This document shows, in pieces, positions 26,140-63,999 of a DNA stretch of 64,000 nucleotides. Each line of letters opens with the position of its first letter. The stretch's first letter is position 1. This DNA is from a virus. Lineage: Duplodnaviria > Caudoviricetes. The translations under genes and the position numbers were made by a program. The stretch lies in IMG/VR virus record IMGVR_UViG_3300042691_031247; one strand, given 5' to 3'. The notes under the pieces are model-generated. The model made no database searches. It was not told the origin of the DNA and was given only the letters and a program-made list of their open reading frames with translations.

Positions 26140-27066
26140 TCACTTGAAGTCAACGCGAGCCAGACCGTTGGTGTGGCCGAACGAGCCACCCGAAGTCTGG
26201 TAAGCGAAGTACTCAAGCATGTAAGCCTCACGACGGATGTACATCGTGGTGGGCTCCAGCTCGTAGTTCTTGCCGATGAACTTCGGCGAGGCGAACATGA
26301 ACATGGCGTCATCGGGGACAAGATCGCGCTTGATCGTAACGATCCAGCGGCAGTTGAGGAAGTTAGTCTCCGCCCAACCGTTCTTGATGATGTCCTGCGA
26401 GAAGTCGCCACCCATCTCGTCACGGCCGAACTTGAGGAGTTCCTTGATCGTGATGTTATTCACGAGGCAGGTTTCAACCTCAAAGTGCGACGGCGTCCGG
26501 GGCATGACCTTCAGCGCGTCGACAAGGGTCTCACGCGTGATGCCGCCCGAGATCTCTTCGTACTGCACAGCGCCGCTGGCGACGTTGGCAACACCCGGAG
26601 TCGGGAGCACGGCGTTGAAGGCGGCAATAAACTTGCCGTCCTCTTCAGCCAGCATGTCCTTGATCATGTTGTCGCTGAGGACCTGACGGATGTCGATCAC
26701 GTACGTACGCAGCTCGTCGACGTCCTTCACAGCGCGGGGCGACACGATCCGGTCAAACATGACGCGGTAGCGCGGGCCACGGATGTAGAAGTTAATCGGG
26801 AGCGTCGCAAACGGGAGCGACACAGCCGCCGGGGAATCGGGCTCCTTGTCCACCACCTTGACGGGCTTGTCAGTGTCAACCTGACGGTCAAGCTCGTCGT
26901 TGGTGATGGTCAGCGGCGGCATAATCCGCCGGTAGAACCCGTCTTCACGCATCTTGGTGCGCGTGAAGTCGTTAACCGCGTCGATGGCCTGCTTCTGCAT
27001 GCCGGGGGTATCGAGCTGCTCAAAAAGCGTTTCGTTGAGCAGTTGGATCTCTTGCTGAGTGGGCAT
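26140..27066 (-). CDS. major capsid protein (probable HK97 fold)
   Basis: Start reassigned to MPTQQ (GGAGG SD); 308 aa; pattern FYRRIMPP...VSPRAVKDVDEL...IKDMLAEEDGKF fits HK97-type MCPs; position after protease, scaffold and decoration genes; strong codon bias. Confidence 0.75.
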   Translation of the reverse strand: MPTQQEIQLLNETLFEQLDTPGMQKQAIDAVNDFTRTKMREDGFYRRIMPPLTITNDELDRQVDTDKPVKVVDKEPDSPAAVSLPFATLPINFYIRGPRYRVMFDRIVSPRAVKDVDELRTYVIDIRQVLSDNMIKDMLAEEDGKFIAAFNAVLPTPGVANVASGAVQYEEISGGITRETLVDALKVMPRTPSHFEVETCLVNNITIKELLKFGRDEMGGDFSQDIIKNGWAETNFLNCRWIVTIKRDLVPDDAMFMFASPKFIGKNYELEPTTMYIRREAYMLEYFAYQTSGGSFGHTNGLARVDFK

Positions 27067-27105
27067 TTTGGGAACCTCCATGTTCCTTAATTAGTTAGGG
27101 ATAGG

Positions 27106-27739: not shown

Positions 27740-28165
27740 TCAGGTAGTGGGCGGGTTAAGACCAAGGCCCGTAAACAGCTTTACGTCGGAAGCCTTGAGG
27801 CGACCATCGCGGGCACCCACATACCCGCTCGTCAGGCTGGCCGTCGGGTCGTAGCTGGCGGACTTTGTGGCCACCGGCGTACCAAGACGAGCCAGTTCAG
27901 CCGCGTTTTTGTGCGCGGCTAATTTGATAACAAGTTCCATCGCGCGCACCGGATCTTGAAGGGCGGCGGCAAGCGCTTCCTTCTGGTGGGCCTCGATCCG
28001 CTCGTTCTCCACGCACGCCTTGACGGCTTCGGGGATCAGGTGAGCCAGCTTTTCGCTGGTTTCAACCTGCGCCTTTTCGGCGGCGGCGGCTTTGGTCATC
28101 GCAGCATCGGAGTAACCGATGTAGTCGATGATCTTCTGTACGAGCGCGTTATTTTCGGTAGACAT
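27740..28165 (-). CDS. hypothetical head assembly protein
   Basis: 141 aa, helical; GGAGG SD; K-x-A motifs. Confidence 0.65.
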   Translation of the reverse strand: MSTENNALVQKIIDYIGYSDAAMTKAAAAEKAQVETSEKLAHLIPEAVKACVENERIEAHQKEALAAALQDPVRAMELVIKLAAHKNAAELARLGTPVATKSASYDPTASLTSGYVGARDGRLKASDVKLFTGLGLNPPTT

Positions 28166-28181
28166 TAAAACCTCCGTGTGA

Positions 28182-29525
28182 TCAACGATTCACGAGTTCG
28201 AGAACGTGCTGCTTCATCATGTCCCGCAGCTGGCGCGAACGCTTTGTGCGAGCTTCTTTGACTTGAAACCGACCAGCACGCTTAAAGTTTACAACAGCGC
28301 GACCGATGGCGTCTAAATCTTTAGCAGCAGCCATCTTCGGTTCTTCCATCGGCGGCATACCCGCGTCAGGCGCAGCGCCAGCTTCGGGCGGCATACCGCC
28401 TTCTGCGCCAGCACCACCGGCCCCGGACAGAGCTTGCAGCAACGCTTCCGGCGGAATGCCGAGTTCTTCAAGCGCCATAGCCAGCTCTTGAACAGCCTCG
28501 TCTTCCGACGGCTCGCCGCCGGCAGCTTCAGGAGCCGGGCCACCCTCAGCGCCCATCATGGCTTCAAGACCAGCGGGTGCGCCGCCAGCAGCAGCGTCAT
28601 CAGCCGGGGCGTCGCTCATACCAGAAGCAGCGTCTTCCGGCGCGGAGTGATCCTCGCCTTCAGCCGCCTCTTCGGTCGGATCGGCGGCCGCGGCCTTGGA
28701 GTTTACAAAACCGATAAACAGGTCGGCCATTTCGTCGGCTTCGCGGATCGTGTTAGCGCACACTTCGCGAACGGAAGCTTCGGCAGCAGCCTTGTCCATA
28801 CCGAGATGCGCGGCAAGCTCGTAACCCGCTTTGAACGCGGCAGCTTTGTCGCTGCGAAGCGCGGCAAGATCAGAACCTTCAATCTTGCCATCGTTGTCGG
28901 TGTCGAGTTTGTGCTGGTCGCCTTTTAGCTCGCCGGTCGACTCGCTTTTTTCTTCGGACTTCTCTTCAGTCTTTTTCTTTAAAAAAGCCGGCATCTCGGC
29001 CGCCTTCTCGTTGGTCAGCTTACTGGCGCCAAAGTTGATAAGGTTGGCAAGAATGTCGTTACCAAGTGTGCCGGCACGATCGCGAGCTTCCTTGAACGTA
29101 ACCGAGCTGTACTTCTCGCCGTCGTTAGCCTTGACCGGCGACGAAGTGCCCGGGTCATCCTTATCGCCCTTGAAATCTTTCTCGTTGGACGGATCTTCGC
29201 CAGTGGCCTTGGCCGAGACGCCGATGTTCGTTTGAACTTCGTCTTGGCGACCTTCTTGCGACATCTCCGGTGTGTTGTCTACAGCAAGAGCACCCTGCTG
29301 CTTCTTGACGTCAGCTTCGTACTCGCTGGCGCGCGCACCAGTGCTGGCGTTTTGCACGCCGTTGTCAGCGCTGGTCGTCGGATGCGATGAGGCACCCTGA
29401 TAGCCACCCGGATCAGCGGGCACGGGACCGGCCGACTTTTCAGCCGCAGTCTTAACCGGGCTCTGCGCAATCTCAGCGGCGAGAGCGTTAAGTTGATCGA
29501 ACAGTGAACGTTGCATCCGTGCCAT
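28182..29525 (-). CDS. putative prohead scaffolding/core protein
   Basis: 447 aa; acidic, Ala/Gly/Pro-rich low complexity; directly after the prohead protease. Confidence 0.55.
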   Translation of the reverse strand: MARMQRSLFDQLNALAAEIAQSPVKTAAEKSAGPVPADPGGYQGASSHPTTSADNGVQNASTGARASEYEADVKKQQGALAVDNTPEMSQEGRQDEVQTNIGVSAKATGEDPSNEKDFKGDKDDPGTSSPVKANDGEKYSSVTFKEARDRAGTLGNDILANLINFGASKLTNEKAAEMPAFLKKKTEEKSEEKSESTGELKGDQHKLDTDNDGKIEGSDLAALRSDKAAAFKAGYELAAHLGMDKAAAEASVREVCANTIREADEMADLFIGFVNSKAAAADPTEEAAEGEDHSAPEDAASGMSDAPADDAAAGGAPAGLEAMMGAEGGPAPEAAGGEPSEDEAVQELAMALEELGIPPEALLQALSGAGGAGAEGGMPPEAGAAPDAGMPPMEEPKMAAAKDLDAIGRAVVNFKRAGRFQVKEARTKRSRQLRDMMKQHVLELVNR

Positions 29526-29568: not shown

Positions 29569-31026
29569 TCATGTGACATAATTTTGCATTACACAGTGGT
29601 TTGCTGTCAACCAATTGTTTCCATATTTCTCGCAGATGGCGGCGTAAGCAGCGATCTTATACAACGCGTAATGTTGCGCAAGAGCTGTTTCTGCTTTTCC
29701 ACTCGCTTGCTTGTCGGACGGAAACTCAACTGCCCGGGCGTTACGAAGCGCGGCTAAGTAAGCACGCTTCTCAACACTGACGGGTAATACGCTATGTGTG
29801 TGTGCTACCTTTTCAGCCCACACGCGCACGTTTTGCGGCGCCGCGTCAGCTGGAAAGTATACGTTATTCTCAAGCAACGTGACGACATCTGCGTCGTTCG
29901 CTAACTTTGAAAACACGTTAGGCAGCGCATACGCAACTGCACTAACAAGTGTGGCGTTAGCTGACTTAACTGTCAACGCTAAAAAATCTCGCAGCGGCAA
30001 GATTACTCCAGCGTCGGCTAGTCCGCGTAACACCTCAGACATTTTAACAGAAGGAGCGTTATTTGCATCAATAGCCGGTTGTACTTCGCCGGCGCTGGCA
30101 AGTGCTGTCTGCGCCCAGTTACCACCCGCGCCTGCATCCTTCTCCGCCTGCGCAAGCTGTGTTAACGCCTCTAGCTGCAGCTGAACACGGGCGGCAGGTG
30201 TGCGCCCTAAGTCGAACCCAAGCGGCGCGGTAATACCCAGCTGTTCGGCTAGTTCGGCGCCGGAAACACAGCTATTTGACGCGGCTTTCTGCAGCTGGCC
30301 GGATACGTAAGCAATGCGGTCTGCCGGGCGAAACACGTGGCTGATATCAAAAAACGTCGGGTTGGGGTTGTCGGCGTGGAGTACGTGGCCGTCTTCCAGT
30401 ACCCGCCCCATATTGTGCTTTAACCCGCCCGCCTTGCAGTGGCCGCCGTTTTCTACAGAGTCGCAGTACTCGGCGCGGGTCTTGGCCGTGTTACCGCAGG
30501 ACGAGCACTTGTCGAACGGGATCTTACATGCCATCGACACGGCGATCTCTTTGTCGTTGGCCAGCTTTTCCAGCTCTTTGTCTGCAATCAGGCCGCCGTT
30601 CCGGTCAGCCGCCTCTTTCGAGCCGTTTAGCGCCACGACCAGCTCGATACGTTTCATGGGCTCGTGGTAGGCGCTGGCCTTTACGATGCCGAAACTTTTA
30701 GCGGGGTTCTTGTTGGCGTGGTCGCGATAGAAGCGGGCAAACTTCTCGAACGTCTGATGGTAGTTCCGACAGCAGTCGCGAGTAAAGCCGTCGCCGTTAC
30801 GGTTCGGGCCGTAATCTTCTGTGGCGCCGATCGCGATCATGTGAACCGGCACTTCGTCTTTGGCAAACTTGATATTTTCAAGCTTGTGTGCAAACTCGGC
30901 ACCGGCGCGCTTTACAAGTTCCTGCTTGTCTACGCCGATGATCCCGCGGCTAGATACTTTGATAAGCGCAGCGACTGGCTCACTAAAGTCTTGAGCGTGC
31001 GGCTGGATGACCTTAATCATGCTCAT
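29569..31026 (-). CDS. prohead maturation serine protease
   Basis: PNRNGDGF, YRDHAN (His), AVSMACK (Ser), a Cys-rich insert (CSSC...YC...HC) and FFDISHVFRPADRIA, consistent with HK97/herpes-type prohead proteases. Confidence 0.75.
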   Translation of the reverse strand: MSMIKVIQPHAQDFSEPVAALIKVSSRGIIGVDKQELVKRAGAEFAHKLENIKFAKDEVPVHMIAIGATEDYGPNRNGDGFTRDCCRNYHQTFEKFARFYRDHANKNPAKSFGIVKASAYHEPMKRIELVVALNGSKEAADRNGGLIADKELEKLANDKEIAVSMACKIPFDKCSSCGNTAKTRAEYCDSVENGGHCKAGGLKHNMGRVLEDGHVLHADNPNPTFFDISHVFRPADRIAYVSGQLQKAASNSCVSGAELAEQLGITAPLGFDLGRTPAARVQLQLEALTQLAQAEKDAGAGGNWAQTALASAGEVQPAIDANNAPSVKMSEVLRGLADAGVILPLRDFLALTVKSANATLVSAVAYALPNVFSKLANDADVVTLLENNVYFPADAAPQNVRVWAEKVAHTHSVLPVSVEKRAYLAALRNARAVEFPSDKQASGKAETALAQHYALYKIAAYAAICEKYGNNWLTANHCVMQNYVT

Positions 31027-32014: not shown

Positions 32015-33388
32015 TTACAGTAACTCGCGGGCCTTCTGCTGCGCTTCGAGATTACTCTTCAAACTCTCAGCGCGGATCTTCTCCATTTCAATCAGCTGTT
32101 TGATATCAAAATCAGCGAGCTGACCGGCCTCTAGCCGTTTGCGCAAAAGAGCCTGCATAGCTGCACCTGAACCAGTAAAGTTAGGAGCAATTTCGGCAAT
32201 TTGGTTGTACGCGGAAGCTACCTCGTGCGGGTCATAACCGGAGATAACCGGATCGTTCAGGATAAGGTCGTTTAGTACGCCGCGCGATTTGATTTGCTGC
32301 AGTTTGTTTTCGTGCTCGGCGTCGGACATCTGCGCAAACGCTTTTTGCTTTTGTTTGGTCGGGTCGGTCGATTTCCCGGCGTTGGCGTCCATTTCCGCTG
32401 CAAAACCAGACGGGCTCATGATCTTACCGAGATAACCCATCGTTCCGCTGTATGATGTCAGCGGGGGTGTTGTATCTGGTTTTTTTTTAACGGCTGCCAC
32501 CTTAAGGGCGAGCGGGGCCGTTCTCGGATCGTGCAGAATTGAGCCCGTAACGGGGGTCGGCGTCACTTTCTGCGCCACGGCGGGCTGCGTTAACGCCGCG
32601 AGCTTGCTCGCTGCATTGTTGTGCAACTCCACCGCTTTGATCACGTTCTCGACCAGCGTTACCACCGGAAGCGCGCCGAAAAAGTTTTCGCTGCTAGCGG
32701 CCTGCTTTGTGAAGTGCGGGTAAACAGCCGCAACCTTGTTTAGCGTCGAAACACCGAGGTCGCCGAGCCGCAGACCAACTTCGCGCAGCGCGTCCGGGAA
32801 CGCCATGTTGCCGGGTACACGAAAATACTGCGCCAACTCTTCCATAGCTGACGCCGCTTTGTGATGCGTCAGTGTGGCTAGCCGGCGGACTTCGTCGGCG
32901 TGGCGGGCGGCGGCCTGTTTTTCGCTATAGGCGCGTCGCGCGGCGGAGTGCTCGTCACGCGGCGGCGGTACATATGTGGGCGCCGGGAGCACGCTCTTGG
33001 CGGCGGCTGCTTTATTCAAGCTCGCGTTGCGCCGATTAATGAAACCTGTCGGCGCAACAGCGTACTCTGTCGAGATGATGCTGTTGTTTGTTAACTCAGC
33101 CGATGTTTTAACGTGCTTGGGATATAGCGCGTCCATAACCACGTTTACGTCGGCAAGCTGGAAGTCTGCCGCTTTCTCTAACGTGTTTGCGCCAAGTTCG
33201 CGTTGCTTGTTGGTGCGTCCAGTGTTGTACGCATGCACCATAAGATTAATATGCCCGGACGGGATGCCCGCATCACTCGCGCTTTTAATAATCGCGTTGT
33301 TCGGGGTGGCGCCTTCGTTGACCAACGTGGCCGCACGCTCAATTGCGCTCAGCAATTTTTGCTCAGCTTCTTTACTTAATGCCCGCAT
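32015..33388 (-). CDS. hypothetical head-region protein
   Basis: 457 aa, helical, at least seven K-x-A-[AS]-like motifs. Confidence 0.7.
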   Translation of the reverse strand: MRALSKEAEQKLLSAIERAATLVNEGATPNNAIIKSASDAGIPSGHINLMVHAYNTGRTNKQRELGANTLEKAADFQLADVNVVMDALYPKHVKTSAELTNNSIISTEYAVAPTGFINRRNASLNKAAAAKSVLPAPTYVPPPRDEHSAARRAYSEKQAAARHADEVRRLATLTHHKAASAMEELAQYFRVPGNMAFPDALREVGLRLGDLGVSTLNKVAAVYPHFTKQAASSENFFGALPVVTLVENVIKAVELHNNAASKLAALTQPAVAQKVTPTPVTGSILHDPRTAPLALKVAAVKKKPDTTPPLTSYSGTMGYLGKIMSPSGFAAEMDANAGKSTDPTKQKQKAFAQMSDAEHENKLQQIKSRGVLNDLILNDPVISGYDPHEVASAYNQIAEIAPNFTGSGAAMQALLRKRLEAGQLADFDIKQLIEMEKIRAESLKSNLEAQQKARELL

Positions 33389-50866: not shown

Positions 50867-51877
50867 TTATCGCCCGAATAGGCTGGGCACAACTGCGTGC
50901 ATCATTCCGCCCCACAGCCCCATGTCTTGTAACTTAGCCTGCCCGGCCGGAGTTAATCCAGCCATCGCCGAGAGGGCTTTTCCGGCGATCGTAGCGGTGG
51001 CCAGACCGACACCGGCAGAGGCAATACCGTTAATAACGTCCACGGGCCGAATGATCGGCGACCGCATGTTCGTGCTGATGCCGCTCATGAGTCCCGTAGT
51101 CGCCGCGGCAAACTGCGGCGGTGTGTGGTTTTGAAACCCGCGGTACATGCCCATGTTTACGTCTTGCCACGCCGCGCTGTTGAACTGCGGCACGGATACC
51201 GTCGGCGCAAATAACGGATTATTGGCGAACGACTTTTTTGTCATCTTTTCTTGATACGGATACACAACGGGCGTTTTGTTATTTGTAAGCAGCCCGCGCA
51301 GCATGCTCGTGCGCAGGGCTTTCGCGTTGGCGTAGGAGTTCAACCCGGCCACACCGACGCCGCTCAACGCACCCATGAGACCAAGTGTGCGCCGTAGTTT
51401 GCCGCGCTCTAGATAACGCTCTGGAAAAAACTGCTCGGCAAGGGTGCCGGCGCCATAGCCAAGCCCGCCGGCCAGCAAGCCTGTCATCAATCCGTTCGAC
51501 AGCGGCGTGGGTCCGCCCAGCATTGCGTTCCCTGTGTTCCAGACTGTCGGCAGTCCGGGCACCAACGAACCGACCTTGACTAAGATCTCCTCGTTCCAGT
51601 CTGGCTGAATCTGGTTATATGACACGCTTGCCAAACACCGGTCGCCGTCATAGATCTCGTGCTCGTAGATGTCGTACGCCTGCTTGTCGAGCTGTTGCGC
51701 CGAATACAGCGTGATGGCGTTAAGTTCCGGCGACCATGTAGCGGCAGTAATCGCGAGAATGCCGGCTTTAAGTGCCGCCTGCTCGTGTGCCACCTTTACC
51801 TGCACCGCGAGCGGCAGGAGCGCCGCAACGCGCTCCGGGACCGCCTGCCACTCATAGATAGTCGCTGTGGATTTCAT
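50867..51877 (-). CDS. glycine-zipper protein, putative internal virion protein
   Basis: 336 aa; four Gly/Ala-rich hydrophobic segments. Confidence 0.6.
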   Translation of the reverse strand: MKSTATIYEWQAVPERVAALLPLAVQVKVAHEQAALKAGILAITAATWSPELNAITLYSAQQLDKQAYDIYEHEIYDGDRCLASVSYNQIQPDWNEEILVKVGSLVPGLPTVWNTGNAMLGGPTPLSNGLMTGLLAGGLGYGAGTLAEQFFPERYLERGKLRRTLGLMGALSGVGVAGLNSYANAKALRTSMLRGLLTNNKTPVVYPYQEKMTKKSFANNPLFAPTVSVPQFNSAAWQDVNMGMYRGFQNHTPPQFAAATTGLMSGISTNMRSPIIRPVDVINGIASAGVGLATATIAGKALSAMAGLTPAGQAKLQDMGLWGGMMHAVVPSLFGR

Positions 51878-51880
51878 GAA

Positions 51881-52153
51881 TTACCGGTTGAGCGTCAGAA
51901 TAAATTTTACAAACACCAGCCCCCACGCGAGCACGCCGCTGATAGCAAAAAAAACAATCACGGCGCTCAGGCTGACGAGTTTGCCGAGCTTTTGAATCTG
52001 AATGTCTTTCAACAAGCGCCACGCCTTGAGGTAATCGATCGCGCCCGGTTGGTGCGGCGGTTCCGGCGTGGGTTCCGGGGTCGGCTCTGGCGTCGCGGGC
52101 TTCTTCTTGCGCCCCAGTAGCTCATTCAGCCTGTCGAGCAGCGGATTAGCCAT
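51881..52153 (-). CDS. small membrane protein
   Basis: Start at MANPLL; PEPT repeats; C-terminal TM helix. Confidence 0.55.
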   Translation of the reverse strand: MANPLLDRLNELLGRKKKPATPEPTPEPTPEPPHQPGAIDYLKAWRLLKDIQIQKLGKLVSLSAVIVFFAISGVLAWGLVFVKFILTLNR

Positions 52154-53732
52154 GTTTTTTGCCCCAGTTCTGGATGGTGTCAAAGACATCATTGCCGTAC
52201 AGCTGCGTAGCCTTGTCGAACATATTCATCTGTGGCAGTGTTCCGGTCGCGGCTGCTTGCGCCATTTGATATCTATACTGCGGATCAAGCATCGAGCGGT
52301 ACAGATGTGACTTCTGCCGCGCGGCCAAGATGAAGTCACCGCGTTGCTTTGCTTTTAACAGATGGTCAGTGACGTTAGCGAACACCGGTTTGTTGTGGTC
52401 GTACACGATCGGCGTGCGAAAGTTCAGCAGGTTACGAAACTGCTGCGCGTACACACTGTTCTCGGCCGCTTTGATCTGCGAACCGACAACGGCTGCCGGC
52501 GCATGAAACCGAAACTTCGTCGGCGTGTGCGTGACGCCCTTGTACTTCGGCTTCGGATCGTCGACGTGCCAGTCTTGCGGTGATTGCGCGATTAATCGCC
52601 GCAGGATCTCGTGCTTGCGGTCGTATTCGCGGCGATCTGAGTGCGTTTTCGCCGCACGTAGCTCGTCGAGAATGTTGGGCTTCTTGGGTGCGGGCTCTTT
52701 TTCGGCGTCTTTTTCGATTACTTTGACTTTTTCGTAATAGGCGGGGTCTTCGGACAGATGATCTTTGGCAATTTCTTTGGCGACTTGATCATTGTTCGTG
52801 TGTTCGTGCTCATGCTGCGCTCCTTCGGCTAATGCTTTCTGAGAAATTTCCCGATCGGGAACATTGTCGGCTTTTCCACCCTGTAATAGGTCGTTCTTTC
52901 CCGAGCGGGAAAGATTTTCTTCCCGATCGGGTGTGTTGTCCCGTGCAGGCATATCGCTGGCGGCTGTTTTATGCGTTGCGGCGCAATAGCCGCTTTTTTT
53001 ACACACGCACGTCGGCGGGCAAGTGCGGGCGCCGGAGCAGTTACAGTCGTAAGTCGTGTCGTCAGCCGGTGCGCTGGCGGCTTTGAGTTCTCCCCGACTG
53101 ATGGGGTTACTGAACCTATGCTCTTCCGTCGTTTCGGCAGGGGTTTCGTAACCCTTTGACTTACCGTTGTCGAGCAGGACGCCTTTACGTCTGGCAGCGA
53201 CCGTAATGTGAAACGGGTGGTCGTCATTGGGGAGCGCCGACAGCCCGTAGCTTTTGCGCAGCGCCGAAAGTCCCGGGCTGCTGACCTGAATAGCCCAGAC
53301 CTTGCTTACGCCGTCGACATTCTTGACGTCTATCTCTTTCAGGCCGCCCAGCGTGTAGCCGAACATGTGCCCGCGCTCGTTGATCTTGTCAGCGCCGATA
53401 GATGCTACTTCAGCCGCGGTAAGGACCGATATATGCGCATTTACAAGATCGCCCTTAACGTTTGGAACGTTAAACACACCAGCCGTCGGTAATTCAGCAC
53501 CGGGCTCGGTTAGGGCGTCAAACACGCCCCGAACCAGCGCGTTCGGTACAGATAACAAAAGCCAGCCCGATTTGGCGAGATACAGCCGGCCGGCGAGCGG
53601 ATAACTTGTGGCCGCTTGCTTGTTGCCGCCGCGATAAAGCCAGCCGAGAGCGTTACCAGCGGCGTAGGCGGGGTGCTCGCGGAAGTACTGCTGGTCCCAA
53701 GCGAGCGGGTCGAGTGCTGAGAGGCTGTCCAT
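52146..53732 (-). CDS. multidomain protein with 2H phosphoesterase-like domain
   Basis: Two H-x-[S/T]-h motifs (AHISVL, FHITVA) about 75 aa apart; then a Cys-rich CNC...C...CVC...YC segment, HEHEHT...EIAKDHLSEDPAYY, and further small domains. Confidence 0.65.
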   Translation of the reverse strand: MDSLSALDPLAWDQQYFREHPAYAAGNALGWLYRGGNKQAATSYPLAGRLYLAKSGWLLLSVPNALVRGVFDALTEPGAELPTAGVFNVPNVKGDLVNAHISVLTAAEVASIGADKINERGHMFGYTLGGLKEIDVKNVDGVSKVWAIQVSSPGLSALRKSYGLSALPNDDHPFHITVAARRKGVLLDNGKSKGYETPAETTEEHRFSNPISRGELKAASAPADDTTYDCNCSGARTCPPTCVCKKSGYCAATHKTAASDMPARDNTPDREENLSRSGKNDLLQGGKADNVPDREISQKALAEGAQHEHEHTNNDQVAKEIAKDHLSEDPAYYEKVKVIEKDAEKEPAPKKPNILDELRAAKTHSDRREYDRKHEILRRLIAQSPQDWHVDDPKPKYKGVTHTPTKFRFHAPAAVVGSQIKAAENSVYAQQFRNLLNFRTPIVYDHNKPVFANVTDHLLKAKQRGDFILAARQKSHLYRSMLDPQYRYQMAQAAATGTLPQMNMFDKATQLYGNDVFDTIQNWGKKHG

Positions 53733-53746
53733 AGCGCGCTTTCAAA

Positions 53747-53818
53747 CTGCCTGAGTAGGACTCGAACCTACAACCCCAGCATTAACAGTGCCGTGCACTA
53801 CCATTGTGCTATCAGGCA
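53747..53818 (-). tRNA. trnN: tRNA-Asn(GTT)
   Basis: Cloverleaf: acceptor TGCCTGA/TCAGGCA, D-stem GCAC/GTGC, anticodon arm CGGCA-CTGTTAA-TGCTG, T-arm GTAGG-TTCGAGT-CCTAC; discriminator G; no encoded CCA. Confidence 0.95.
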
Positions 53819-53825
53819 AGATATG

Positions 53826-53975
53826 TCACGGGGTCGCGCTAATACTTGGCGTGGTCATACCTCCGACCGCGTGATGTGAAACAGCCGCATAGGCCGACAC
53901 GAGCAGCAAGAGGCAAAAAACGGCGGAAGCGCCCCACGCGGCTACGCTCAATTGTTTACGGACGGTCATTGTCAT
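53826..53975 (-). CDS. small single-TM protein downstream of a holin
   Basis: 49 aa from MTMTV; hydrophobic AVFCLLLLVSAYAAV; overlaps the holin-like gene end. Confidence 0.45.
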   Translation of the reverse strand: MTMTVRKQLSVAAWGASAVFCLLLLVSAYAAVSHHAVGGMTTPSISATP

Positions 53976-61091: not shown

Positions 61092-63050
61092 TTAAAACGC
61101 GCTGCGGCTCCTGCGGTGTTGCGTGGGCTGGCCAGCGCCTTGTGCCGCCTGCGGCGCAAACGGCGAACGGAACTGCATCTGCATCTGCACGGGCGACTGC
61201 AGCTTCGGCTGGCCGGCACCGTAGTACGCAGCTGCGCCTACGGCCGGAAGCGCTAACGCCGAATGTCGTCCGGCAAGTTGACCCGCCTGACCGACAGCGC
61301 TTGTTGCCGCACCAGCAGCCGCGCCGGCTGTGCCCATCATATTGCCAACAGCGTTCAACGTCGGCCGGTTTGGCGCGGCGTTAATAAGGCGAGTGCTTTG
61401 CTGCGCCACAGTGTCACCCACAGCCGTAGCCGCTCGACCGGCGCCGCCTACCAGCCCACGCGCACCAGCAGCCAATCCGCGCGCGCCAGCAGCAAGCCCG
61501 CGCGCAGCGAGGCCGCCAAACGCCTGTAACGCGTTTGCGTTTTTGCTGGCGCACGCTGAGCCGGCAGCCGCAGCTAGCATTGGTAGTTTTTTCTTTACAA
61601 CCGGTTTTGGCGCCGACTTTGGCAGCGGTTGCTGAGCCTGAAACGGAACAGCAGCTGACTTTGCCGCCGACTGTTGACTGTTTGTGGCGTCCGTCGGAAC
61701 CGGACTTGTAGCCTCGCGCTGCTTGTCGTCGATTGGCTTGCTGTTGCCGCGCGAACTCGGTGGGCAGCTCATTTCAGTCTTGCCGCGGGGCGCACTGGAG
61801 ACAGCTTTCTTTTCTTTCTTGTCTGTCTTCTTCTTGCTACCGACCGGGCGGCACGAATCATTGCTGTACGGCTTTTTGCCCGGCACTGGCTCGTAGCCGG
61901 TCCAGCATCGGCCGGCTACCTTCATGCCAAACTCCAGTGCCGAGCCCTGCTTCACACCGGTCAGGCTAGCGTTCTGCAACTGCGGCATGAGCTGTTCAAT
62001 GATATTTTTATTGTGGGTCAAGAAGTCGTACATTTGTCGCCCCTGATCGCTAGACATATTAGGATCTCGGCCCATCAACATCGTGGTGCCGAACTCCGGG
62101 CTGAGCTGCCCGAGCGCATTAATTTGATCCATAGGGTTGCCGCCCTTGCCGCCGCCCATCATGCCGTAAAGAGCATTCGCGCCTTGGCCAACCATGCGGC
62201 GTGGGCCGTCGCCGAACATGCCGGCGCCAGCTGCGCCCAGACCAGCCGCGCCCAAGCCCAGCGCGCCCATCGCTCCGCCCATACCGTAGTTGCCGCGCCC
62301 ACCCATGAACGCGCCAGCTAACGCCAGCGGCACACCGGCGCCAATGGCATAGCGCGCTTCGGTCGGCATGCTGTTCCACATGCCCATCAGGCCGTCATTA
62401 TTCGGCTGCTTCGCGTTCGCGGGATTTAACGGATGGTTGGGGTCTTGTGCGGCGGCCTCAAACAAATTTGGCACCGCGTTATTTTCGCCGGCTCCGCCGC
62501 CGCCGACCATGCCTGTGGCGCGCCCAGCGCCGTACATCGCGCCGGCGCCTGTAGCCACGTTCAGCGGGTTAAGCTTGTCGCCGACCGGGCTCGTGCCGAA
62601 CACTTGCCCAGCCGCAGTCTGGACGGGGCGCACCACGCGGTCGCCGAGCTTGGCGCCGGTTGCCGCAGCAGCTTGGCCCGGCCCGTTCATCGCGTACCGC
62701 GCCGCGTCATCGGCATAGTTCAGACCATGGCGGACCGCGTCTTGCGAGACTTGGCCGACGCTGCCGACAAATTTTGCGCCCTGCGTCGCCTTGTTCGCGA
62801 TTGCTTGCCCGGCGCCGCTGATCCGATTCCCGACCGCGTCGTCCACTTTGTTAAAGCCTTTTGATACCGCCGAGCCAGTATTGGCGACCGTATCTTTGAC
62901 CGCTTTACGTGCAGCGACGGGAATCTGCCGCCGCACACCGGCCATGGCGCCCCGGACACTCTTTACCGCGCCGTCGGCCAGTCCGCGAAAATCCACCGCG
63001 GCTTCTTTGTCTGCGCCGCCAAGTTGTGTACCAAATTCATACGGAGTCAT
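61092..63050 (-). CDS. Gly/Ala-rich multidomain protein, putative internal virion polyprotein
   Basis: 652 aa; leader MTPYEFG...DKEAA; glycine zippers; CWTGYEPVPGKKPYSNDSC motif; RGLAAGA tandem repeats. Confidence 0.65.
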   Translation of the reverse strand: MTPYEFGTQLGGADKEAAVDFRGLADGAVKSVRGAMAGVRRQIPVAARKAVKDTVANTGSAVSKGFNKVDDAVGNRISGAGQAIANKATQGAKFVGSVGQVSQDAVRHGLNYADDAARYAMNGPGQAAAATGAKLGDRVVRPVQTAAGQVFGTSPVGDKLNPLNVATGAGAMYGAGRATGMVGGGGAGENNAVPNLFEAAAQDPNHPLNPANAKQPNNDGLMGMWNSMPTEARYAIGAGVPLALAGAFMGGRGNYGMGGAMGALGLGAAGLGAAGAGMFGDGPRRMVGQGANALYGMMGGGKGGNPMDQINALGQLSPEFGTTMLMGRDPNMSSDQGRQMYDFLTHNKNIIEQLMPQLQNASLTGVKQGSALEFGMKVAGRCWTGYEPVPGKKPYSNDSCRPVGSKKKTDKKEKKAVSSAPRGKTEMSCPPSSRGNSKPIDDKQREATSPVPTDATNSQQSAAKSAAVPFQAQQPLPKSAPKPVVKKKLPMLAAAAGSACASKNANALQAFGGLAARGLAAGARGLAAGARGLVGGAGRAATAVGDTVAQQSTRLINAAPNRPTLNAVGNMMGTAGAAAGAATSAVGQAGQLAGRHSALALPAVGAAAYYGAGQPKLQSPVQMQMQFRSPFAPQAAQGAGQPTQHRRSRSAF

Positions 63051-63195
63051 GGGGTCGTTCCTGTTTTGTTATTTCTGGTTGCGGCGCGTAATCGCACCGG
63101 CCGCCTTCGCAGCAGGTTTCTAAAATAATGTGACAAAAAGGGCAGACTAACTTGCCGCGGATCTCAATCGGCGGGCTTTCGCACTGCGGGCACAT
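63037..63195 (-). CDS. 52-aa Cys-rich zinc-ribbon protein (not in ORF track)
   Basis: MCPQCESPPIEIRGKLVCPFCHIILETCCEGGRCDY...; TAATG-coupled to the upstream gene. Confidence 0.65.
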   Translation of the reverse strand: MCPQCESPPIEIRGKLVCPFCHIILETCCEGGRCDYAPQPEITKQERPHDSV

Positions 63196-63776
63196 TACCA
63201 CTCCAGCTCCACCGGGCGCTGCGTCTTGTAATTAAAGTCAACGTCAATCGGCGAGCGGAACTTCACGCCGGGAAGCGGAAGCTTCGGCGCCACAGAAGCC
63301 GTACCACCAAGGAGCCCAGCCGCAACCAGCGACGGCACGCCATACGATGTGTCCGCCAGCTGCGATAAGCCGCGGCCACCAGCCTGCAGCGCCTTGCCGG
63401 CAAAATCTGTGACGTGGCCGACACCACGAGTTGCCCGACCAGCAGCCCGGCCGCCAAAGCCCAGCGCCGACATGACGTCGCCGTACATGCCGGTGTTACC
63501 CGCGCCGTGATCGATCACCGTCTTGCCGCCCTTCATGGCTTCGCGGCCGACGCCTTTGGCTAACCCAGCTGCGCCACTCGTGGCCTGCCCGAGCCCTTCG
63601 ATCCCGCCGCCAAAGCCGCGCACCAGATGCTTGGCACCCTGATTGATCGTCTTGGCGCCTGTGGCAACCCCGCGGCCAGCTTGCGCCAGCCGAGCGAAAA
63701 TCGAACCCATGTTAATGCTCGGGGCTGCAGATTTTTCTTGCTGCCCAACGCTGTAGCCAAACTCAAACGGCGTCAT
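63195..63776 (-). CDS. Gly-rich protein, paralogous in its leader to the 652-aa protein
   Basis: Start reassigned to MTPFEFGYSVGQQEKSAA; amphipathic Gly repeats; C-terminal hydrophobic segment. Confidence 0.65.
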   Translation of the reverse strand: MTPFEFGYSVGQQEKSAAPSINMGSIFARLAQAGRGVATGAKTINQGAKHLVRGFGGGIEGLGQATSGAAGLAKGVGREAMKGGKTVIDHGAGNTGMYGDVMSALGFGGRAAGRATRGVGHVTDFAGKALQAGGRGLSQLADTSYGVPSLVAAGLLGGTASVAPKLPLPGVKFRSPIDVDFNYKTQRPVELEW

Positions 63777-63807
63777 GTGTCGGTCCTTTGTTATGAGAAC
63801 GAGTGTC

Positions 63808-63999
63808 TTACCACTTGAAAGGTCGCGGTGGTCGTGGCATAGTCGGCGCCGGAACAGGGGGCGCATTAAGCTGCTGCGCACTAATTTGCGCCGTGCTGTT
63901 TTCCAGCGGTTGCGAGCCCATCGTCATGCGCACGGTGTTAATCGGATTGCGAATCATGGCGTTCATGGTCGACTTCACCGGATTCATCGGCAGCGACAT
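63808..63999 (-). CDS. hypothetical protein (possibly 5'-truncated by the window edge)
   Basis: 63 codons at the window end; Met/Pro-rich. Confidence 0.4.
   Translation of the reverse strand: MSLPMNPVKSTMNAMIRNPINTVRMTMGSQPLENSTAQISAQQLNAPPVPAPTMPRPPRPFKW

Follow-up and report, generated by a model that had tools for sequence, protein, structure and literature searches.

A modular 2H phosphoesterase polyprotein of an uncultured lake phage as a candidate capsid-targeted virion cargo

The subject of this analysis is a gene of an uncultured lake phage (Duplodnaviria; Caudoviricetes) represented by IMG/VR record IMGVR_UViG_3300042691_031247 (198,101 bp, 97% complete). The gene lies in a stretch of 64,000 nucleotides (nt) of this record, referred to below as the window, in which every large gene is carried by the minus strand; coordinates are those of the window, and all features described here are on its minus strand. 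The open reading frame (ORF; P0001, 52146..53732) encodes a modular protein of 528 amino acids (aa). One of its modules has the family signature and the fold of 2H phosphoesterases, its modules are separated according to a junction rule by the motif K-x-A, and the same code is common to capsid and scaffold-like proteins of the phage; these four points are directly supported by the data given below. From them we infer cleavage, packaging and ejection of the protein, and the kind of substrate. Under the favoured reading, to which we assign a probability of roughly 50%, the ORF would encode a capsid-targeted virion-cargo polyprotein, cut at K-x-A by the maturation protease of the phage to yield a 2H phosphodiesterase along with accompanying fragments.

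All features that a first-pass annotation of the DNA, made from the sequence alone, had listed for this ORF were found: the motifs NKQAA (K38), HISV (H100), HITV (H175), LKAAS (K217), HKTAAS (K255) and IKAAE (K421), the Cys cluster, and the HEHEHT...AKDHLSEDPAYY stretch, which was identified as a DUF5661 domain (Pfam PF18905 at aa 298–341, 34.8 bits against a cut-off of 27). A further K-x-A, missed at that stage, was located at K341 (EKDAE), where the DUF5661 unit ends.

The protein begins with a leader (aa 1–40, 53613..53732; helix 21–35) that is highly conserved in the family, ends in N-K38-Q-A and is a candidate capsid-targeting propeptide. It is followed by the 2H phosphoesterase module (aa 41–219, 53076..53612; fold aa 44–187), a predicted 19-kDa fragment recognized by Pfam, structure comparison and BFVD, and by a Cys-knot peptide (aa 220–257, 52962..53075) with cysteines at 230, 232, 238, 242, 244 and 250, enclosed between K217-A-A and K255-T-A. 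The helical DUF5661 unit (aa 258–343, 52704..52961; helices 298–344) carries the HEHEHT and AKDHLSEDP motifs and ends in K341-D-A. Next come a small alpha/beta module (aa 344–423, 52464..52703) ending in K421-A-A, with a predicted local distance difference test score (pLDDT) of 83–93 and weak helical-hairpin matches only, and a C-terminal helical domain (aa 424–528, 52149..52463) with generic helical-bundle matches only.

In the AlphaFold model (80 homologues in the alignment, mean pLDDT 70), folded units were observed at 44–187 (alpha/beta), 232–250 (knot), 279–345 (helical), 354–416 (alpha/beta) and 427–521 (helical), and the low-pLDDT linkers between the folded modules hold all five K-x-A sites. 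The C-terminal helical domain is usually the last module in relatives and is swapped out in some of the longest mosaics. A Cys knot with at least four cysteines was present in 54 of 128 relatives; as it is missing from many, it is dispensable. Structural matches of residues 351–422 and 424–528 to 14-3-3, TPR, pyocin S5 and designed bundles (Z 4–6) were set aside as generic helical hairpins or bundles and uninformative, and an atlas search with the C-terminal half gave no matches. The whole protein retrieved nothing from PHROGs at an expectation value (E) of 0.1 or below, and nothing meaningful among PDB sequences.

The 2H module was recognized by the Pfam model 2H-SAK (PF22547) at aa 95–182; the score was 34.3 bits (cut-off 27), and 37.2 bits in a six-frame search of the genome. 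It was the only 2H family of Pfam that was matched, and nearly all relatives also scored above its cut-off. As regards the catalytic motifs, H100 and I101 of the first, H100-I-S102 (53427..53435), are shared by 90% or more of the 80 homologues compared, and the second, H175-I-T177 (53202..53210), is likewise present in at least 90%; both HIS and HIT were invariant in alignment A3. In structure comparisons, aa 54–187 superposed on 20 different 2H structures with Z values of 5.0–6.9, and because these values are middling, the Pfam match also carries weight for the assignment. The reading of HISV...HITV as a 2H domain was confirmed: the module has the 2H alpha/beta fold, with an H-x-T/S motif in either half, and is a predicted phosphodiesterase.

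The domain had also been called Acb1-like, a label that is justified by the shared 2H fold only. Acb1 was the nominal top structural match (Z 6.6–6.9, with a root-mean-square deviation of 3.5 over 107–108 residues; for PDB entry 7T26, Z 6.9, deviation 3.5 and 108 residues aligned) and ranked first in a search without the Foldseek pre-filter, in which 2H enzymes made up 10 of the 29 chains scoring Z 5 or higher. It lay, however, within 1 Z of LigT-type enzymes, cyclic phosphodiesterases (CPDases), Usb1 and a phage phosphodiesterase (PDE). The corresponding values were 6.0 for both LigT-like 1IUH and drCPDase, 5.9 for the Burkholderia phage BCSR5 PDE, 5.8 for Usb1, 5.5 for CNPase, 5.4 for both mouse hepatitis virus (MHV) ns2 and the penguinpox cGAMP PDE, and 5.2 for E. 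coli LigT. The structural comparison with Acb1 and LigT that had been suggested returned both folds; Acb1, LigT, CPDase and Usb1 are tied, and the assignment goes no further than the 2H fold.

In BFVD, giant-virus proteins and a phage '2H-SAK' protein (E 5e-6 to 1e-2) outranked the Acb1 models (E 0.06–0.11, ranks 21 and 30). PF22547, whose name the phage protein bears, is the 2H domain of Swiss Army Knife multi-domain proteins and also occurs in giant viruses and phages. A profile of the 2H module retrieved no solved 2H enzyme, Acb1 included, from PDB sequences; the P-II matches obtained (E about 0.04) were insignificant and taken as noise. In the literature, no usable paper was found on 2H-SAK, DUF5661, BCSR5 or Swiss Army Knife with RNA repair, and none that tested a phage 2H-SAK member. 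The name 2H-SAK presumably derives from fungal multi-domain RNA-repair proteins.

The hallmarks of Acb1 are an HxT/HxT tetrad, a compact 2H fold, a C-terminal lid and cleavage 3′ of adenosine (PMC9117128), of which the tetrad and the compact fold were compared. The catalytic tetrad of the 528-aa protein is HxS/HxT. Like Acb1 (T4 57B; Erwinia phage FBB1, PDB 7T26/7T27; PMC9117128), the module has a compact, ~145-residue 2H fold and two catalytic His motifs; unlike it, it is part of a longer chain, Acb1 being free-standing, and no sequence relationship between the two was detectable in PHROGs or in the PDB profile search.

The K-x-A separators were evaluated across the protein family, whose members number over 400, lie mostly on ~200-kb contigs and are mosaic in architecture. 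Relatives range from 372 to 1786 aa and gain or lose NUDIX, P-loop kinase, GNAT, LigD_N (LigD-type 3′-phosphoesterase) and LAGLIDADG domains, the 528-aa protein having five to six modules. In 16 shuffled mosaics of up to 1786 aa, all 30 inter-domain gaps contain K-x-A-[ASGET], and the Pfam cores, which make up 24% of the residues, hold 2 of the 87 K-x-A motifs (p = 2e-8). In P0055, for example, sites at 37, 192, 228, 312, 468, 656 and 805 bracket the 2H module, the Cys knot, the small module, NUDIX, P-loop kinase, DUF5661 and the C-terminal domain, and in P0122 a kinase match at 590–767 is accompanied by motifs at 580 and 770. A LAGLIDADG homing-endonuclease domain at residues 414–571 of the 1425-aa relative P0127 could represent an intein or a selfish element that has inserted there.

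The motif K[AQT]A[AS] was observed 259 times in the family, compared to 15 ± 3 in shuffled sequences. No enrichment was found for the reversed motif AAxK (45 vs. 50), nor for the R-for-K (RxAA) and E controls. As the family members are related, the junction count was weighted above this enrichment. Codons at the K-x-A motif vary synonymously and match background usage, so the constraint acts on the peptide and not on the DNA; a DNA-level recombination scar was ruled out on the same grounds. Signal-peptidase-type A-x-A cleavage was also ruled out, the conserved −3 residue being Lys. The idea that modules are separated by K-x-A is upheld by the position of the sites in low-pLDDT linkers, by the junctions of the mosaics and by the occurrence of the code in head proteins, and the sequence patterns support the view that the separators behave like a protease code.

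Genome-wide, KxAA was observed 56 times, compared to 32 ± 6 in shuffled sequences, and was concentrated in a few scaffold-like proteins at 27.7–33.4 kb. By protein homology, the source phage is distantly related to the cultured Salmonella phage Arash; a megablast search found no similar phage DNA. A 313-aa protein (26140..27081) is 30% identical to Arash gp226 (E 4e-39), which is annotated as major capsid protein (MCP) and abundant in virions, and also matches the phage G MCP gp27 (E 2e-6); on this homology it is identified as the MCP. Its single K-x-A, at residues 30–32 (MQKQA followed by ID), is kept in all 33 homologues and aligns with K-E-A at residues 27–29 of the Arash protein. Two scaffold/core-like proteins of 141 and 447 aa (27740..29525) carry 6 and 10 conserved K-x-A motifs, respectively, and a Cys-free head protein of 457 aa (32015..33388) carries 10. 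In the head module of Arash (142833–151411), gp220, gp223 and gp225 each contain 7–10 hydrophobic-x-K-x-A-[S/A] units.

A candidate for the cutting enzyme was found in the same region. The 485-aa protein encoded at 29569..31026 has a catalytic-type domain at about aa 55–245, followed by LQ-K247-A-A-S. In tblastn searches it matched Arash gp222 (4e-26) and phage G gp19 (8e-12), the latter named head maturation protease (PMC12484599), as well as gp13 of Gordonia phage Stormageddon, which carries the annotation 'capsid maturation protease'. Protease, scaffold-like proteins and MCP are encoded in the same order as in Arash, and the nearest named clusters in a protein atlas were Peptidase_S77/S80, which was regarded as a lead only. 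On these matches the protein is the probable head-maturation protease. An alignment of its protease domain gave only sub-threshold TSP_1 and zinc-ribbon matches in Pfam, rejected as noise. Residues 164–200 contain the invariant stretch S-M-A-C-K-I-P-F-D...C-S-x-C-G-N...Y-C-D...C-K-A-G-G with about six conserved cysteines, which looks like a zinc-ribbon-like insert and would be unusual for prohead proteases.

Several head-region proteins share with the 2H protein an N-terminal stretch of 15–40 residues ending in K-x-A-[AS]. The pattern [YFW]x2-3Gx2-3Gx1-7KxA had four matches in the genome, all N-terminal, compared to 0.4 ± 0.6 expected, the pattern having been built partly from three of the four, so that the fourth alone is independent. 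Two further proteins with a leader of the 2H-protein type are encoded at 61092..63881 (61092–63050 and 63195–63881), and a third starts at 63808 and runs past the window end. The N-terminal sequence common to these three neighbours is M-T-P-[YF]-E-F-G...K-x-A-A; their leader being of the 2H-protein type, they too may be capsid-targeted cargo.

Cysteine is depleted in the family. Outside the Cys knot it accounts for 0.094% of residues, compared to 1.49% genome-wide (a 16-fold depletion), and 45 of 128 members are Cys-free. Among the genome's proteins of at least 200 aa, 17 of 96 are Cys-free, including the sigma factor, K-x-A-rich proteins of 327 and 457 aa, and both chains of the two-chain bacterial-type RNA polymerase that the phage encodes. 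The absence of Cys may be a compositional signature of passage through the tail. Three 2H-family mosaics of 963–1215 aa (P0121, P0122 and P0125) are also without Cys.

The favoured reading would translate into the following course of events. The 40-residue leader would take the chain into the assembling prohead, where the putative head-maturation protease (29569–31026) would cut K-x-A in every linker and remove the leader. About five pieces would be freed: the 19-kDa 2H phosphoesterase, the 38-residue Cys-knot peptide, the DUF5661 unit and the two C-terminal modules. These would remain in the head and enter the host on ejection, alongside the DNA and the packaged RNA polymerase, so that the 2H enzyme would be on hand from the first moment of infection. 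Its most likely activity would be hydrolysis of a cyclic or 2′-5′/3′-5′ phosphodiester nucleotide, the candidates being immune second messengers of the host and 2′,3′-cyclic phosphate ends. Relatives swap the middle modules (NUDIX, P-loop kinase, GNAT, LigD-type 3′-phosphoesterase) and retain leader, 2H module and linker code.

Several observations weigh against this course. The 528-aa protein taken alone contains five K-x-A motifs, compared to 4.7 expected from its composition; as this count equals chance, the case for a non-random motif rests on its position and on the relatives. K and A are moreover common residues, typical of flexible linkers. The gene is not part of the head module but is flanked by a lysis-like block and an actin-like module and stands behind a tRNA gene, and the Cys knot fits poorly with the otherwise Cys-free composition. 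The protease assignment leans on remote homology and on the annotations of others: the Pfam prohead-protease models S77 and S78 had no match in the genome, and the AlphaFold model of the protease domain (mean pLDDT 47) was too poor for a fold search. Phage G has a homologous protease, but its MCP gp27 is without K-x-A, so that either this MCP is uncut or the specificity of the protease is different; the K-x-A code accordingly belongs to the Arash-like lineage. Finally, Arash, for which alone among the cultured relatives virion proteomics is available, has no 2H-SAK gene. Its virion proteome was itself rejected as packaging evidence, being a permissive list of 116 proteins that includes ribonucleotide reductase and ligases. 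K-x-A-S units also occur in phage G gp19, after the catalytic domain.

The chance-level count and the location of the gene would also suit an unprocessed cytoplasmic multi-enzyme acting as one chain, a 'Swiss-army-knife' for nucleotide or RNA-end processing, in which K-x-A would belong to Ala/Lys-rich linkers travelling with the modules. The Pfam family 2H-SAK is, in addition, named after multi-domain proteins with no known cutting. We consider this explanation possible but somewhat doubtful. It leaves unexplained why K-x-A(-A/S) stands at the N-terminus of the MCP and recurs 6–10 times per scaffold-like protein in this phage and in Arash, and why it follows a conserved N-terminal leader common to four proteins. 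Nor does it account for all 30 junctions keeping both K and A while the reversed, R and E controls are flat.

A second alternative concerns the substrate: the 2H module may be a cyclic phosphodiesterase that heals the ends of tRNA or other RNA cut by host anticodon nucleases, together with the kinase and 3′-phosphoesterase of relatives. LigT/CPDase-type 2H enzymes are structurally level with Acb1, the P-loop kinase and the LigD-type 3′-phosphoesterase added by relatives are typical end-healing activities, and a tRNA-Asn(GUU) gene (53746..53819) lies 13 nt upstream of the ORF. However, no Rnl2-type ligase (PF09414) and no RtcB (PF01139) was found in the 97%-complete genome, the controls being positive (a PF09511 search was uninformative, as its control sequences gave no signal), and the tRNA is next to the polyprotein gene in only 5 of 8 related loci, being lost in the other 3. 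The 528-aa protein, furthermore, has no kinase module. The option of tRNA repair, raised in the first pass, is weakened by the missing ligase and the inconstant tRNA adjacency, and we regard end healing as unlikely.

The ligase result fits the picture drawn for polyvalent proteins, whose 2H domains never accompany RNA ligases and were proposed to degrade nucleotide signals or to act as RNases (Iyer et al. 2017, PMC5512222). As the set of NUDIX, kinase, GNAT and LigD-type modules suits either role, the substrate is left between signal destruction and end processing. Particle delivery of an anti-signalling activity has a precedent in concept, since a virion ejection protein blocking the cyclic oligonucleotide-based anti-phage signalling system (CBASS) was reported (bioRxiv 10.1101/2025.07.23.666291). 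The first-pass interpretation as a whole is partly supported. Processing in the prohead into assembly (core- or scaffold-like) factors that are expelled from or retained in the head, as opposed to delivered effectors, would agree with a cleavage code identical to that of the scaffold-like proteins and with helical C-terminal modules that bear no enzymatic signature, but it is quite improbable given the conserved, catalytically intact 2H domain and the swappable NUDIX, kinase and GNAT modules, which make little sense for scaffolding.

With respect to known systems, the internal proteins IPI–III and Alt of phage T4 are cargo with a capsid-targeting sequence, cut by the prohead protease gp21 at (L/I)-x-E, and are injected to act early against the host; inner-body proteins of phiKZ and SPN3US are cut by gp175 at (S/A/G)-x-E. 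The 528-aa protein resembles this cargo in its short N-terminal leader ending in a motif also found in capsid and scaffold proteins, the cutting by a protease being in its case proposed from such motifs. It differs in the use of K-x-A instead of x-x-E, in the proposed release of about five pieces from one chain, in its shuffled middle modules and in being known from sequence.

The second group of comparable proteins are the polyvalent proteins, in which one phage chain unites several conflict-type enzymatic modules, including 2H, NUDIX-associated and GNAT domains, in highly mosaic arrangements (Iyer et al. 2017, PMC5512222). They were predicted to be delivered with the DNA, their 2H versions being unlinked to RNA ligases (PMC5512222), and the same is proposed for the 528-aa protein. 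Unlike them, the latter is free of embedded peptidases such as MPTase, of MuF or portal fusions and of a DNA-methylase/helicase core; its modules are split by an apparent recognition code of the head-maturation protease and follow a predicted cleavable leader. A Pfam search for delivery anchor domains (MuF, portal, embedded MPTase or other peptidase) found none in the 528-aa protein or in 17 mosaics. The polyprotein is best read, by analogy, as a variant that combines features of polyvalent proteins with those of T4/phiKZ-type processed capsid cargo.

In the gene neighbourhood, the polyprotein gene is followed by two conserved genes (50867..52192), which encode a protein of 103 aa, hydrophobic in a C-terminal segment, and a Gly-rich protein of 336 aa, and then by the lysis-like block; this order is kept in the NUDIX-bearing relative L036. 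From its first ATG, the 103-aa ORF overlaps the end of the 528-aa ORF by 47 nt (52146–52192). A later in-frame ATG would reduce the overlap to 8 nt, and such a small overlap suggests translational coupling. A terminator-like hairpin with a T-run (53923–53937) was observed between the upstream gene for a 118-aa membrane protein and the tRNA-Asn gene, so that the tRNA and the 2H gene may form a separate transcription unit or need read-through.

Were K-x-A indeed the recognition site of the maturation protease, this would be, to our knowledge, the first 2H phosphodiesterase pre-loaded in a phage particle within a polyprotein. The K-x-A code is testable in an existing culture system, as the capsid and scaffold proteins of Arash carry the same code. 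A broader proposal, which we advance only tentatively, is that the lake phages of this large group, probably along with Arash-like phages generally, may use K-x-A, read by the head-maturation protease, as a 'zip code' to load freely shuffled enzymes as a polyprotein and release them separately in the capsid. Virions would then bring along a customisable set of enzymes, with the pre-made 2H nuclease destroying immune signals before the phage expresses its genes. If the maturation protease does read the code, it would provide a sequence rule predicting which proteins are packaged and cut in abundant freshwater phages and in cultured Arash-like phages, and virion-delivered effectors would be possible without an embedded peptidase.

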